Below are positions 4,096-60,626 of a stretch of 64,000 nucleotides of DNA, piece after piece. The number at the start of each line of letters is the position of its first letter. Position 1 is the stretch's first letter. The notes beneath the pieces were generated by a model. The model did no database searches. It had not been told where the DNA came from and saw only the letters and a list, made by a program, of their open reading frames with translations. Source of the stretch: Escherichia phage KEP4; sequence record PP047754; one strand, written 5' to 3'. A program made the position numbers and the translations under genes.

Positions 4096-4509
4096 TTATT
4101 TAATCTGCAGTTTTTCAGTCAATTGCGAGATTATTTCATTACGGTCAGTCGCGTCGATACCCAGGGGTTCCGCAAGTGTTTTAAGATCATTGATATCGAG
4201 CAAAAGAAGAACTTCAACTGTAATATCGGTTGATACCACAGTACCTGGTTTCATCGGCTTACCGAATTTATCTAACCCATAACGGCGCAAAGTTCCGGCA
4301 AGTCCGGTGAGTTCCTCTAGAAGCTCCTTAGAGCCGTCTTTGTATTCACACACCCAACCGTAGTCACCAGCGTAGACAATACCGCCGTCGCCGCCCTGAG
4401 GCACGTTATCCACCACGCGTTGCAGATAACTGGGAAGTTTATTTTCTTCCTGTGCAGTGATTTCTTGAATGGTTTGGGTGTTTTCAATTTTCTTTTGTGT
4501 CTTCGCCAT
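4096..4509 (-). CDS. hypothetical protein
   Basis: ORF-track frame 4096..4605 trimmed to the internal Met (MAKTQKK...) at 4509, which has a GGAG Shine-Dalgarno upstream and removes the overlap with 4484..4783. Confidence 0.5.
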   Translation of the reverse strand: MAKTQKKIENTQTIQEITAQEENKLPSYLQRVVDNVPQGGDGGIVYAGDYGWVCEYKDGSKELLEELTGLAGTLRRYGLDKFGKPMKPGTVVSTDITVEVLLLLDINDLKTLAEPLGIDATDRNEIISQLTEKLQIK

Positions 4510-4783
4510 GATCAGTTCTCCTATAGACTGTAATATATTTACCACAACAATTGCAGCAATAAACATGCATGGAATATCCGTCGTCGTTAAAATCACAGCC
4601 GCCACAACGACAAAATAATTTCACGAACTGGTCGCCTATGACTTCTCTAGGAGGAAAATTCCTGAACGAGTATTCTCTGAGTTCACCCTCAAATTGGAAT
4701 GAATCAACAAGGAACTTTGTTTTTCGGCGCAGTGATCCAAATGCCTGTTGCTCATACACGAAGTAAACATCTCTGGTTTCCAT
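4484..4783 (-). CDS. hypothetical Cys-rich small protein (possible zinc ribbon)
   Basis: 99-aa ORF with paired cysteine clusters (CRCGGC ... CCNCCG). Confidence 0.45.
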   Translation of the reverse strand: METRDVYFVYEQQAFGSLRRKTKFLVDSFQFEGELREYSFRNFPPREVIGDQFVKLFCRCGGCDFNDDGYSMHVYCCNCCGKYITVYRRTDHGEDTKEN

Positions 4784-4794
4784 ATCAACCTCAA

Positions 4795-4822
4795 AGAAAA
4801 GGAGGCCGAAGCCCCCTCTTTT
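4795..4822 (-). terminator. hairpin terminator, probably bidirectional
   Basis: GGAGGC-CGAA-GCCCCCTC hairpin flanked by T-runs on both strands (aaagaaaagg ... tcttttatg); sits after the rIIB stop. Confidence 0.5.
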
Positions 4823-4836
4823 ATGTCAGTTCGCGG

Positions 4837-28283: not shown

Positions 28284-28370
28284 ATTGCTTCAACTGGATT
28301 CGAACCAGTGACCTCAGGCACCTTGTTCTCTCGAAACTTTCCTGCGCTCTACCACTCGAGCTATGAAGCA
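28284..28370 (-). pseudogene. tRNA-like element without an anticodon stem (probable pseudo-tRNA)
   Basis: Reverse complement has a 7-bp acceptor stem (TGCTTCA/TGAAGCA), canonical D-arm GCTC-GAGTGGTA-GAGC and T-arm ACTGG-TTCGAAT-CCAGT, but a sliding 5-bp/7-nt/5-bp scan of the 35-nt middle segment finds no anticodon stem. Confidence 0.35.
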
Positions 28371-28373
28371 ATT

Positions 28374-28462
28374 TGGCGGAAGGTGAAGGATTCGAACCTT
28401 CGGGGGCTAAAAGCCCCACTCGATTAGCAGTCGAGTCCCTTAAACCTCTCGGGCAACCTTCC
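28374..28462 (-). tRNA. tRNA-Ser (anticodon GCT), type II with long variable arm, CCA encoded
   Basis: Reverse complement folds as GGAAGGT/ACCTTCC acceptor, anticodon stem CTCGA/TCGAG with loop CTGCTAA, variable arm GGGGCTTTTAGCCCCC, T-arm GAAGG-TTCGAAT-CCTTC, discriminator G plus CCA. Confidence 0.8.
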
Positions 28463-29130: not shown

Positions 29131-29206
29131 TGGCGACGATGGCAGGACTTGAACCTGCGACATACGGTTTAACAGACCGCCGTTCTACCGACTGAACTAC
29201 ATCGTC
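29131..29206 (-). tRNA. tRNA-Asn (anticodon GTT), CCA encoded
   Basis: 76-nt cloverleaf: acceptor GACGATG/CATCGTC, D-arm GTTC-AGTCGGTA-GAAC, anticodon stem GCGGT/ACCGT with loop CTGTTAA, T-arm GCAGG-TTCAAGT-CCTGC, discriminator G plus CCA. Confidence 0.85.
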
Positions 29207-29619: not shown

Positions 29620-29695
29620 TGGTGACCCTGGCTGGACTTGAACCAGCGACCAATCGATTATGAGTCGACTGCTCTAACCACTGAGCTACGGGGCC
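29620..29695 (-). tRNA. tRNA-Met (anticodon CAT; elongator Met or lysidine-Ile type), CCA encoded
   Basis: 76-nt cloverleaf: acceptor GGCCCCG/CAGGGTC (one mismatch, one GU), D-arm GCTC-AGTGGTTA-GAGC, anticodon stem GTCGA/TCGAT with loop CTCATAA, T-arm GCTGG-TTCAAGT-CCAGC. Confidence 0.8.
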
Positions 29696-29758
29696 AAAAT
29701 TTGGCGGGGTCTGAGGATTTTCACCTCACCTGCTGGATTGGCCTCCAGCTGTTCTCTA

Positions 29759-29784
29759 TGAGGATTCGATGCGCGCGCATCGAA
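29759..29784. repeat. perfect 26-nt palindrome
   Basis: GGATTCGATGCGC|GCGCATCGAATCC is an exact reverse-complement palindrome. Confidence 0.6.
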
Positions 29785-30016
29785 TCCCTTAAACTATCGC
29801 CCCATAATTTATTGTGTGACCAACCAAGGTCTCTCAACCCTTTATCCCGTTTGTGCATGATCAGTTCATGCATGCCTGTTTGTGCGCCTCGCGGCAACGC
29901 GCTTCTGTGGGTCTTTGGCTTGCACCGTAGCCTCACCACAGGCGTTTATTTTTCCAGGGCTTTCCACTTGCAAGTCTTGACCATACAGGGATACGGGCTT
30001 GCAAGATCGGGTTGGA

Positions 30017-30096
30017 CACAACTTTGATGGCTCTGGTACTAAAGATCCCGCGTCACCCATAGACATGGTTTATAAAATCCAGAGCCATCAAAGTTG
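30017..30096. repeat. long inverted repeat (about 18-bp perfect stem, about 42-nt loop)
   Basis: CAACTTTGATGGCTCTGG at 30018-30035 is the exact reverse complement of CCAGAGCCATCAAAGTTG at 30078-30095. Confidence 0.55.
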
Positions 30097-30475
30097 CAAC
30101 CAAATGTTACAACTCGCATTCAATGTCTTCGTCACACCGAATACTTGTCCTCTATCGCTCGGACCAAACGAGGCTGGCCGAAGAAACAAAACACCACTCA
30201 ACACTAGAGCAAGGATGTGGTTGATGGCCACGATGTAATGTCTCTATCGAAGAGTGATCACACTTGTCAGATGATCACTGTTTTGCGAACTCGAGAATAC
30301 TGCGCCTGTCTCGGGTTTCCCCTTAGTTCGGCCTCTCATTGTTCGTCCGGTCAGGGAGCTACCCTTGATGACCAGCTTATATTGAGATCTTCGCCAGCGC
30401 CCACCAGTGTCTAGAATGTGTAGGCGTCGAGGTCTGCAAGGCATTGCCCTATTTCATACAACGCTCTCTCAAGTA

Positions 30476-30608
30476 CGCAAATCGAAGTTCTCTGGGCTTA
30501 ACAGGTTCGACCCAACATGTTGTATATCGCCTAACTTACTCATGGGACGGCCACTTCTGTGTACAGACCTTGAGGGTTAAAAGATATACCCAGAGAACTT
30601 CGATTTGC
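30476..30608. repeat. long inverted repeat (20-bp perfect stem, about 93-nt loop)
   Basis: CGCAAATCGAAGTTCTCTGG (30476-30495) and CCAGAGAACTTCGATTTGCG (30589-30608) are exact reverse complements; a second hairpin TGTGGGGG-CAAA-CCCCCCACA follows at 30610-30630. Confidence 0.55.
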
Positions 30609-30894
30609 GTTGTGGGGGCAAACCCCCCACACGGCTACTTCTTTAACAGGGATTGCTAGCCCTGGGGATTCCACTGTTTAAGGCTTTATCCCATAACGCC
30701 CGAGGCGCGTTTTAACTTATTGAAGCTTGCATAACTGCAAACTGATGCGCTGTGAGACACATCTTTGAGGGCACTCAGTGTACAACAGGCTCCGATATTT
30801 CATAGGGCATTACTGCCTCGGATTTAAGTTGCCTTTCTCCTGAAACTCCATACAGTCTCGCGTCTGACGCGGAATGCCCTCAAAGATATGGAGC

Positions 30895-30925
30895 CGTTTT
30901 AGGGAGTCGAACCCAAATGCTTGGC
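30895..30925 (-). ncRNA. tRNA-like T-arm fragment
   Basis: GGG-TTCGACT-CCC in reverse complement; no acceptor complement found. Confidence 0.2.
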
Positions 30926-31016
30926 CAGCGCTGACCTTACATCCCATCTGACTTAGGCAACCCACCTCTGCCTACTCAGGAGCTTATCCCCTTTGGACAG
31001 TCAGATATAACGGCGT

Positions 31017-31045
31017 TGGGATTGGAGGAAGGACTCGAACCTTCT
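31017..31045 (-). ncRNA. tRNA-like 3-prime fragment with encoded CCA
   Basis: Reverse complement GAAGG-TTCGAGT-CCTTC-CTCCAAT-C-CCA; no 5-prime acceptor strand (ATTGGAG) nearby. Confidence 0.25.
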
Positions 31046-31300
31046 CATGTACGCTCCTGATTTCTCAGAAGTAGTCTGCTCCCATCGACCTATTAAGTAC
31101 ACGCTCCGCTCATTGTCGACGGGAGATTATTAATCACACCCTCCCGTCTATTTTAGTGCGCCGAATTTGGTGATGAGGAATCGGAAGACCTCACTGGTGT
31201 ATGGCTATTAAGCTACTGCCAGGAACGTGTTATCATTAGCGATTATTTTTGTGGTCAGTTTCTAAAAACCCGCAAAGTCACGCACAACGAAAACGAAAAC

Positions 31301-31365
31301 CTGTTTGAGTCCTAAACCTACCTGTCTTGGTCTCACATCGCTATGAGTGGCCAGGACTCAAACAG
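31301..31365. repeat. inverted repeat (13-bp perfect stem, about 39-nt loop)
   Basis: CTGTTTGAGTCCT (31301-31313) is the exact reverse complement of AGGACTCAAACAG (31353-31365). Confidence 0.5.
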
Positions 31366-31427
31366 CTTGCCGTTCAGTGAGTTAACTATACTTTGTAACC
31401 CGTTATTGATAAAACCTTTTATTTTTG

Positions 31428-58730: not shown

Positions 58731-60626
58731 ATGGCAACTCAAAGCTTCAGCGTTGCGCCGTCCGTTCAGTGGACTGAGCGTGATGCCACGCTTCAGACGT
58801 CCCCGTCCGTTGTTGTTCAGGGCGCGACCGTCGGCAAATTTCAATGGGGTGAAGTTGAACTTCCAGTGCTGGTGACTGGTGGTGAGACAGGTTTGGTGAA
58901 GAAATTCTTCAAACCCAACGACAGCACCGCGACCGATTTTCTCGTAATCGCGGACTTTTTGTCTTACAGCTCTATGGCATGGGTGACCCGTGTTGTTGGT
59001 CCTCTGGCCAAGAACTCTGTTACCAAAGGTCAGACAGCGATTGCGATCAAAAACAAACTGGATTTTGAAACAGCAAGTCCTTCGGCGTCCATCACTTGGA
59101 CTGGTCGTTATCCAGGTTCCCTGGGTAATGATATTGCTATCAATGTTTGTGATGCTGCTGGGTTCTCAACTTGGGAATTCCGTAATAACTTTGCATACGC
59201 ACCTCAGTCTGGTGAATTCCATGTAGTTGTCGTAGACAAAGTTGGTCGCATTACCGACTCTGCTGGCGCGGTCGGTCAGGTTGACCGTATCTCCGTTTCT
59301 GGTACGGCTACTGCTGCTGGCACCATCAGTGTGGCAGGTGAAGATATCGCATATCTGGATACTGATACTCCAGCCGATTTGGCAACCAAAATCGGCACAG
59401 CGCTAACTTCCCTGACAAGTGTTTATTCTTCTGTTGTCGTGAAGTCCAACACTGTCATCGTGACACATAAAGCTATCGGTCCTCAGGCCGTTACAGCTAT
59501 CGTTCCTGATGATAAAGGACTGACTGCAACAGCCGTAATCACTACTGTTGGCGCTTCTGGTTCCATCATTGAAAAATACGAACTGATGCAGAACACCCAG
59601 GGTTCTAAAAAATCCGATGGCGCGAATGCGTACTTCAAAGACGTGATCAACGATACTTCAAATTGGGTGTATACCTTCGCGAGCGAACTGGTTGCAGGTG
59701 TCGTTGAATTAGAAGGCGGCGTAGACGATTATAACATCAACCGCGTGGCAGCTATCCAAGTCTTGAACAATGCTGAAGCATATGATGCGAAGCCAGTATT
59801 TGCGTACTGTGAAGAACTGATTGAGCAACAAGCATTGATCGACTTATCTACTGAGCGAAAAGATACTGTATCTTTCGTATCCCCGCTCCGTGATACGGTT
59901 GTTGGCAACCGTGGTCGTGAAATGGATGATGTCGTTGCTTGGCGTGAAAGTCTGGTGCGCGACTCCTCCTATTTCTTCATGGACGACAACTGGGCATACG
60001 TGTACGATAAATACAACGATAAGATGCGTTGGATTCCGGCTTGTGGCGGCACCGCAGGTGTTTGGGCGCGAAGCATTGAAATCGCGGGTATCTACAAATC
60101 TCCGGCGTTCCACAACCGTGGTAAATACAACAACTATAATCGAATGGCGTGGTCTGCGTCTTCTGATGAACGTGCTGTGTTGTACCGCAATCAGATCAAC
60201 AGCATCGTAACCTTCTCCAATGAAGGCATCGTCCTGTATGGTGACAAAACTGGCCTGACCCGCCCGTCGGCGTTTGACCGCATCAACGTTCGTGGTCTGT
60301 TCATCATGGCTGAGCAGAACATCGCCGCAATCGCCAAATACTATCTTGGTGAGAACAATGACGCGTTTACACGTGGTCTGTTCAGCAATGCGGTTCGTCC
60401 ATATATTCGCCAGCTGGCGAATATGGGCGCGATTTACGATGGTAAAGTCAAGTGTGATGAAGATAACAACACTGCTGATGTCATTGCGGCAAACCAAATG
60501 GTTGCTGGTATCTGGTTGAAACCGGAATACAGCATAAATTGGGTGTATCTTGACTTTGCTGCAGTTCGACCAGATATGGAGTTCAGCGAAATCGAATCCG
60601 GTGGCGGCATCGTTGCTGCTTCATAA
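58731..60626 (+). CDS. tail sheath protein (T4 gp18-like)
   Basis: ORF 58698..60626; start placed at MATQSFSV... N-terminal GKFQWG and C-terminal DKYNDKMRWIP...VLYGDKTGLTRPSAFDRINVRGLF match the gp18 signatures. Confidence 0.9.
   Translation: MATQSFSVAPSVQWTERDATLQTSPSVVVQGATVGKFQWGEVELPVLVTGGETGLVKKFFKPNDSTATDFLVIADFLSYSSMAWVTRVVGPLAKNSVTKGQTAIAIKNKLDFETASPSASITWTGRYPGSLGNDIAINVCDAAGFSTWEFRNNFAYAPQSGEFHVVVVDKVGRITDSAGAVGQVDRISVSGTATAAGTISVAGEDIAYLDTDTPADLATKIGTALTSLTSVYSSVVVKSNTVIVTHKAIGPQAVTAIVPDDKGLTATAVITTVGASGSIIEKYELMQNTQGSKKSDGANAYFKDVINDTSNWVYTFASELVAGVVELEGGVDDYNINRVAAIQVLNNAEAYDAKPVFAYCEELIEQQALIDLSTERKDTVSFVSPLRDTVVGNRGREMDDVVAWRESLVRDSSYFFMDDNWAYVYDKYNDKMRWIPACGGTAGVWARSIEIAGIYKSPAFHNRGKYNNYNRMAWSASSDERAVLYRNQINSIVTFSNEGIVLYGDKTGLTRPSAFDRINVRGLFIMAEQNIAAIAKYYLGENNDAFTRGLFSNAVRPYIRQLANMGAIYDGKVKCDEDNNTADVIAANQMVAGIWLKPEYSINWVYLDFAAVRPDMEFSEIESGGGIVAAS

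Follow-up and report, generated by a model that had tools for sequence, protein, structure and literature searches.

A conserved tRNA-like element in the tRNA array of Ackermannviridae phages carries a variable hairpin that is a perfect palindrome in Escherichia phage KEP4

The DNA analysed here, which we call the window, is a stretch of 64,000 nt from Escherichia phage KEP4 (PP047754). Around the palindrome that is the subject of this study, genes and tRNAs lie on the minus strand throughout, and 3 kb of sequence are 100% identical to Salmonella phages kage, BPS6 and SFP10 (Kuttervirus, Ackermannviridae); 333 phage records matched in all. The local tRNA array includes the following genes.

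28374-28462, minus strand: tRNA-Ser
29131-29206, minus strand: tRNA-Asn
29620-29695, minus strand: a genuine tRNA-Met(CAT), 6 nt downstream of the element described below

At 28285-28370 (minus strand) there is also a sequence that scores 48.7 bits with the Rfam tRNA model and has a 22-nt insertion in the anticodon-loop region; it receives no ARAGORN call and is entered as a pseudo 'tRNA-OTHER' in the SFP10 record. To the right of tRNA-Met, ~2.2 kb carry no annotated genes. Positions 30005-31380 of this 2.2-kb non-coding island hold four modules of about 90-135 nt, each with a closing stem of 22-25 bp and a branched interior, whose minus-strand RNA folds have z-scores from -5.1 to -8.3.

30012-30103: module I1
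30475-30610: module I2
30758-30890: module I3
31292-31374: module I4

In CBA120-type phages both arms of I1 have apparently changed, from CTCTGG/CCAGAG to CTCTAG/CTAGAG, and the left arm of I2 is given as a repeat_region in the GenBank record of phage kage. They might represent structured RNAs in an array, or else MITE-like modules.

Between tRNA-Met and these four modules lies a 26-nt perfect palindrome, GGATTCGATGCGCGCGCATCGAATCC, with arms of 13 nt and no spacer, present as a single copy in the window. The original prediction had the sequence right, as an exact and perfect palindrome, and was 3 nt off in placing it at 29759-29784; its position is 29762-29787. It tops all perfect palindromes of the window, the runner-up being 22 nt long (ATATTCGCCAGCTGGCGAATAT, 60403-60424). 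The longest palindrome in 200 shuffles of the window never exceeded 20 nt, and 100 dinucleotide-preserving shuffles gave no match to the palindrome even with 3 mismatches allowed. It is therefore real rather than a product of chance. The surroundings had been described as non-coding, which held up: the closest GenBank records have no CDS at the palindrome, and a Pfam search with the two mechanical ORFs that overlap it gave no match. Homologues of the 102-nt element described below are 101-105 nt long, and their length differences (1-4 nt) are not multiples of three. We conclude from the lack of a Pfam match and from these length differences that the element is not coding.

When Kuttervirus sequences were aligned with those of Limestonevirus (Dickeya), Taipeivirus (Klebsiella) and Agtrevirus (Enterobacter) phages, a block of ~102 nt that contains the palindrome was conserved while the left flank was unrelated. 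BLAST of this block alone returned 199 records; in 185 the match covered nearly its full length. Thirteen distinct Ackermannviridae versions were collected for an alignment and a covariance model. The parts of the element in the window are as follows, numbered both on the window and on the RNA.

29702-29803, minus strand: whole tRNA-like element, 102 nt, 5' GGGGCGAUAGUUUAAG ... CCUCAGACCCCGCCA 3'; 115.6 bits with the covariance model; 13 Ackermannviridae variants plus Seunavirus
29800-29803, minus strand: 5' strand of the acceptor-like stem, GGGG (RNA 1-4), pairing with 29706-29709
29791-29794, minus strand: 5' strand of the D-like stem, GUUU (RNA 10-13), preceded by U8 A9 and pairing with GAAC
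29762-29787, minus strand: the palindrome, stem of hairpin-1 (RNA 17-42), from folding and covariation
29761-29788, minus strand: hairpin-1 with one extra G·U pair (RNA 16:43), which extends the palindrome stem
29751-29754, minus strand: 3' strand of the D-like stem, GAAC (RNA 50-53), pairing with GUUU at 29791-29794
29732-29749, minus strand: anticodon-like arm (RNA 55-72), stem GCUGG(A)/(U)CCAGC, with an invariant GGCCAA in a 6- to 8-nt loop
29712-29728, minus strand: T-like arm (RNA 76-92), stem UGAGG/CCUCA, 7-nt loop UGAAAAU
29702-29709, minus strand: 3' strand of the acceptor-like stem, CCCC (RNA 95-98), and an encoded G + CCA tail (RNA 99-102), invariant in all variants

The hairpin (RNA 16-43) thus sits within the equivalent of the D-loop, and the variable region between the anticodon-like and T-like arms is 3 nt. 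The anticodon-like helix was read from the MAFFT alignment; the model-based alignment misaligned that arm (52% paired).

The element is carried by ~190 Ackermannviridae records and also by Seunavirus phages (Vequintavirinae: 4MG, GAP31), which are matched by the first 34 nt of the query. The Seunavirus homologue is again 102 nt long and lies between two tRNAs, on the tRNA strand, 6 nt after the CCA of the upstream tRNA; its T-like loop is UGCAAAC. The same 6-nt spacer separates the element from tRNA-Met, which it precedes in the window and follows in a Klebsiella phage and in Det7. With this conserved spacing and its occurrence on both sides of tRNA-Met, the element thus behaves like a cassette of its own in the tRNA array, of tRNA size. 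The order is swapped between lineages, even within Kuttervirus, with the spacer always 6 nt (Det7, L142, 202-387; Klebsiella phage, L007, 1506-1688; window, 29620-29803), and the array seems to have been shuffled as tRNA-sized cassettes. Dickeya Limestonevirus phages, in which only one tRNA is predicted (PMC3296691), retain the element.

Roughly a third of relatives lack the element, and the locus, which shows many insertion states, is a hotspot of insertions and rearrangements. The element is dispensable, since CBA120-type phages are without it. In CBA120, SS9 and SeKF_64 it is replaced exactly by the gene of an HNH_3 endonuclease (Pfam E = 2.6e-13).

CBA120 (L003) 4421-4834, minus strand, corresponding to about 29696-29810 of the window: HNH_3 homing endonuclease gene, 137 aa, abutting tRNA-Met

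Two further features were seen beside the element in relatives. A ~107-nt module with a closing stem of roughly 20 bp (TTCATATTGCTGTGGGTA...TACCCACAGCAATATGAA) and a fold z-score of -8.0 adjoins it in some phages and is absent from the window; it lies at 1613-1725 in phage bering (L009) and at about 1700-1810 in Klebsiella phage K5lambda5 (L007), and in CBA120 its right arm alone survives, beside the HNH gene. In EspM4VN (L008, 1610-1689, minus strand) the element and the island are separated by an unusual tRNA-like gene of 80 nt, labelled 'tRNA-Undet' by the depositors and called tRNA-Ser(tga) by ARAGORN, with the anticodon at position 31.

Beyond these phages the searches gave little. E. coli genomes held no copy of the element, and a metagenome scan returned three loci with no new variants of it. 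Scanning IMG/VR for a 14-mer taken from the element's 3' end gave mostly chance matches, and more specific patterns brought up only 14 loci, of known type. The 102-nt element was not annotated in the Ackermannviridae records inspected, and literature on Ackermannviridae, Kuttervirus or CBA120 combined with tRNA-like RNA, non-coding RNA or RNA-seq yielded nothing on it.

On the minus strand, the window RNA folds into a closing stem and three hairpins with a minimum free energy (MFE) of -43.2 kcal/mol (z = -4.3). The z-score was -3.1 for the bering-type copy; the Seunavirus copy was not more stable than shuffles (z = -0.02). The proposed cloverleaf lies within 0.5 kcal/mol of the MFE for the window RNA; with the acceptor and T arm constrained, the Seunavirus RNA takes up this layout within 1.2 kcal/mol. 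The Seunavirus homologue scores 41.8 bits with the covariance model of the 13 versions, and the model can also be aligned from end to end with Seunavirus tRNA-Trp (28.9 bits), the hairpin then being a D-loop insertion. Deleting the hairpin leaves an RNA of 74 nt, as long as a tRNA, which ARAGORN at a relaxed threshold (-ps70) reports as a 'tRNA-???' with the 4-nt anticodon GCCA.

The element shares with tRNAs the order of the cloverleaf helices, an encoded discriminator and CCA, and a place in a tRNA array on the tRNA strand. In detail, the likeness extends to U8-A9, a 4-bp D-stem with U13·G22, a 5-bp T-stem with a 7-nt loop, a possible U54-A58 and a discriminator G followed by CCA. It differs from a canonical tRNA in its 28-nt D-loop hairpin, its 6-8-nt anticodon-like loop, (N)GGCCAA(N), without U33, and its T-loop, UGAAAAU/G rather than UUCRANY, without U55/C56. 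The acceptor has four Watson-Crick pairs plus C·A and G·G, not 7 bp; the conserved C·A is U:A in one lineage. The tRNA detectors did not recognize it: Rfam RF00005 had no match to the element at E<=10 in scans of 6 kb and of 118 nt, and ARAGORN called no tRNA there with default or mitochondrial settings. With all of Rfam 15, the same two scans at E<=10 gave no family, only chance miRNA- or snoRNA-like matches on the hairpin, and neither tmRNA nor the other tRNA-like families of Rfam matched the element (Rfam, ARAGORN).

Within the Ackermannviridae, covariation in the element is confined to the hairpin. Four of its 12 pairs have changed on both sides (for example C:G to A:U, and U:A to C:G twice), a covariation score reached by none of 500 shuffles, and sliding the partners reduced pairing from 93% to 25-52%. 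Between SenASZ3/GG32 and the window a double change, GCGCGCGC to GUGCGCAC, leaves the palindrome perfect. The 10 hairpin cells that are not Watson-Crick but are allowed pairs on the minus strand comprise 10 G·U and no A·C, and all of them are mismatches on the plus strand. This one-sidedness points to single-stranded RNA rather than a symmetric site in duplex DNA. Within the Ackermannviridae the other helices are invariant and hence show no covariation, so that support for the acceptor, D-like, anticodon-like and T-like helices comes from one outgroup, Seunavirus, and from thermodynamics. In Seunavirus, acceptor pair 4 is A:U where Ackermannviridae have G:C, and D-stem pair 10:53 is G·U (GAAU) instead of G:C. 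In phage 241, a 4-nt duplication offers AAAC in place of GAAC for the D-like stem.

The hairpin is also where the sequence varies. Seventeen of its 28 alignment columns are variable, against 20 of 83 in the rest of the element, a count that partly includes gap columns. Over the 71-nt core outside the hairpin the window is 98.6% identical to the copies of Klebsiella and Dickeya phages (Kuttervirus, Taipeivirus and Limestonevirus being compared), whereas the adjacent genuine tRNA-Met is 88% (Klebsiella phage) and 77% (Dickeya phage) identical in the same comparisons. Judged from the aligned sequences, then, the hairpin is hypervariable, its pairing retained by compensatory changes. The near-identity of the core could in part reflect recent horizontal spread within a recombination hotspot rather than selection.

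How the hairpin became a perfect palindrome can be followed through its natural variants. The common form, GGGAU-A-GCUGUCCGGACAGC-GA-GUCCC, has a 1x2 internal loop. In Se_EM4 the hairpin is GGGAU-A-GAUGUGCGCACAUC-GA-AUCCC, in SenASZ3/GG32 GGGAU-UC-GAUGUGCGCACAUC-GA-AUCC and in the window GGGAU-UC-GAUGCGCGCGCAUC-GA-AUCC. Phage 38 (GGGAC-A-GCUGUCC...) and Mooltan (GGGAC-UC-GCUGUCC...) likewise differ by A→UC, and the Mooltan hairpin is a perfect 28-nt palindrome. The change A→UC makes the 5' arm complementary to the GA of the 3' arm, and it is seen in two backgrounds, from Se_EM4 to SenASZ3/window and from phage 38 to Mooltan. Because a substitution plus an insertion has twice created exact complementarity to the opposite arm, we propose template switching; the twice-independent A→UC suggests the signature of a quasipalindrome template-switch mutation. 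Such switching is known to turn imperfect inverted repeats into perfect ones by complex templated changes (PMC7202029). The likeness lies in A→UC perfecting the stem twice; the difference is that here it is read from natural variants, with no mutational event observed. The centre of the hairpin is self-complementary in every variant (CCGG, GCGC; UCCGGA, UGCGCA, CGCGCG), which an RNA loop does not require; template switching would account for this too, with no need for selection. The series provides a clean natural example of the templated perfecting of a quasipalindrome.

The least unlikely of the alternatives, to which we allow a small chance, is that the symmetry is selected at the level of DNA, as a duplex or cruciform site for dimeric protein binding or cleavage. 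The candidate would be the target of the CBA120-type HNH homing endonuclease, with changes in the hairpin representing escape from cleavage. The self-complementary centre of all variants, the propensity of the locus for insertions and rearrangements, and the HNH_3 gene in place of the element in CBA120, SS9 and SeKF_64 would all fit such a site. However, many relatives have the asymmetric 1x2 internal loop, the central symmetry is explained by template switching without selection, and the sequence lacks the conservation that is usual in a site recognized by a protein; among relatives there is no conserved half-site of a symmetric operator (GCUGUCC, GAUGUGC, GAUGCGC, GCCGUCC) although pairing is kept. 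Wobbles that are G·U on one strand only, with no A·C, fit RNA pairing instead. The suggestion in the original prediction of a dimeric protein-binding site is disfavoured on these grounds, pairing being conserved and sequence not. Its proposal to look for the palindrome in relatives gave a divided answer, since the exact sequence occurs only in the SFP10 clade (8 records, at least 99% identity) while a structural counterpart is present in ~190 relatives.

It is also unlikely that the element is a decaying tRNA pseudogene, possibly tRNA-Trp-like, with a hairpin insertion, functionless and with a neutral palindrome. The failure of the tRNA detectors, the broken inner acceptor pairs and non-canonical loops, the absence from about a third of relatives and the further pseudo-tRNAs in these arrays would be expected of such a relic. 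A neutral relic should, however, decay everywhere and not in one helix. Instead, the core is 98.6% identical across three genera in which the functional tRNA-Met has fallen to 77-88%, the pairing of the hairpin survives double substitutions, and the element keeps the same ends in a different phage subfamily, with a compensatory change in the acceptor.

The possible connection with tRNA-Trp deserves separate mention. In a global alignment against 71 tRNAs, E. coli tRNA-Trp, whose sequence was checked against 5426 genomes, scored best, by one point only; it shares GGGGCG-UAGUUyAA and CCCC(U)GCCA with the element. We treat this resemblance as only a lead. In phage 4MG (L130, 2118-2190, minus strand) a Seunavirus pseudo-tRNA lies next to tRNA-Trp. 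Its acceptor stem is paired throughout, its anticodon loop measures 4-6 nt, UUA takes the place of the terminal CCA, and its start, GGGGCGAUAGGCUAA, is nearly the 5' end of the element. It is possibly related to the ancestor of the element. A long shot, in our estimation, is that the element acts as a mimic of tRNA-Trp, with its discriminator G and a CCA triplet in the enlarged invariant loop. It might then act on a host factor directed at tRNAs, either a tRNA-targeting defence nuclease or TrpRS, as its decoy or sponge; a less likely role would be four-base decoding via GCCA in the 8-nt loop. The variability of the hairpin would come from a DNA-level arms race with the HNH homing endonuclease.

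Two readings can be set aside as very improbable. An intrinsic transcription terminator, or an RNA element of the plus strand, would suit a strong G+C-rich hairpin, and a simple scan flags the neighbouring hairpin at 29732-29749 (plus strand) as terminator-like, but that scan does not list the palindrome hairpin, no U-run follows the palindrome on either strand (UCAUAGAG on minus, CUUAAACU on plus), the genes and tRNAs around it all lie on the minus strand, and in a plus-strand RNA the wobble positions would be A·C mismatches. Near the element, scans for sigma-70 promoters, terminators and the T4 late-promoter motif turned up nothing of use. It is equally hard to credit that recombination between tRNA genes joined two tRNA T-arm fragments head to head, as the original prediction had suggested: TCGAATCC does match the T-loop/T-stem consensus exactly, as seen for instance in the local tRNA-Ser, but no tRNA flank lies beside either half, and relatives have a hairpin of unrelated sequence at the same position, within which intermediates trace TCGAATCC stepwise from GCGAGUCC by point changes. 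The series runs from GCGAGUCC through GCGAAUCC / GUGAAUCC to UCGAAUCC, and the opposite arm became complementary later. The suspected link to tRNA was sound to the extent that the palindrome lies inside a tRNA-like gene of a tRNA array; it does not come from T-arms, and the element's own T-like arm, UGAGG-UGAAAAU-CCUCA, is separate from it. The palindrome itself is ordinary, one lineage's perfected version of a variable stem and not a recombination scar.

What lies at this locus, then, is a conserved, structured minus-strand element of tRNA-like architecture within the tRNA array, and the palindrome is its variable inserted hairpin. We think it probable that the palindrome encodes an additional stem-loop of a tRNA-like RNA, specified by a minus-strand gene of 102 nt, that template switching made the palindrome perfect, and that this RNA is processed and acts as a non-decoding tRNA mimic. 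The gene (29702-29803) would be read together with the phage tRNA array, and its RNA would adopt a modified cloverleaf made of the 4-bp acceptor-like stem with G-CCA, U8-A9, the 4-bp D-like stem, the palindromic D-loop hairpin, and the anticodon-like and T-like arms. If only pairing matters in the inserted hairpin, its sequence would be free to drift while the rest of the RNA stays nearly frozen, and in the SFP10 lineage the hairpin would have turned into a perfect palindrome by template switching, one arm being copied from the other during replication. Because an acceptor/T-arm helix and an RCCA end are present, we infer that cleavage by RNase P and trimming of the 3' end would release the RNA from the tRNA precursor; its transcription, processing and ends are all predicted from the DNA sequence. 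The product might then occupy some tRNA-binding factor of the host or the phage.

The acceptor/T-arm part of a tRNA is copied in several RNAs, among them the tRNA-like domain of tmRNA, YrlA (bacterial Y-RNA-like), mascRNA and viral 3' tRNA-like structures, so that tRNA enzymes handle them, and the rest is remodelled. The element differs from these mimics in that no such Rfam family matches it. A closer parallel may be RNA C and RNA D of phage T4 (species 1 and 2 RNAs, rnaC/rnaD), which are likewise small non-coding RNAs in a phage tRNA cluster, on the tRNA strand. They are stable RNAs of about 120-140 nt encoded within the tRNA cluster beside the homing endonuclease gene segB, and their role is still unknown (PMC3014915, PMC9697503). 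The analogy is one of kind, not of homology: their lengths and folds are unlike those of the element, a search of the T4 tRNA region with the covariance model gave no match at E<=10, and no similarity was seen on reading the rnaC/rnaD sequences. The HNH_3 gene at the tRNA-Met of CBA120 mirrors segB in the T4 tRNA cluster beside rnaC/rnaD. Our best guess is that the element specifies a tRNA mimic that is processed and is of the same general kind as T4 RNA C/D.

The palindrome thus flags an unannotated, strongly conserved family of tRNA-like RNA outside Rfam, in phages (Ackermannviridae, Vi1/CBA120-like) that are widely isolated and used for biocontrol. Its core beats a real tRNA in conservation across phages of Salmonella, E. 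coli, Klebsiella, Enterobacter, Shigella and Dickeya, and is shared with Seunavirus, a pattern that points to a real function for the presumed tRNA mimic. The element bears on the 50-year-old question of small stable RNAs in phage tRNA clusters, raised by T4 RNA C/D, and offers a second, easily testable family.
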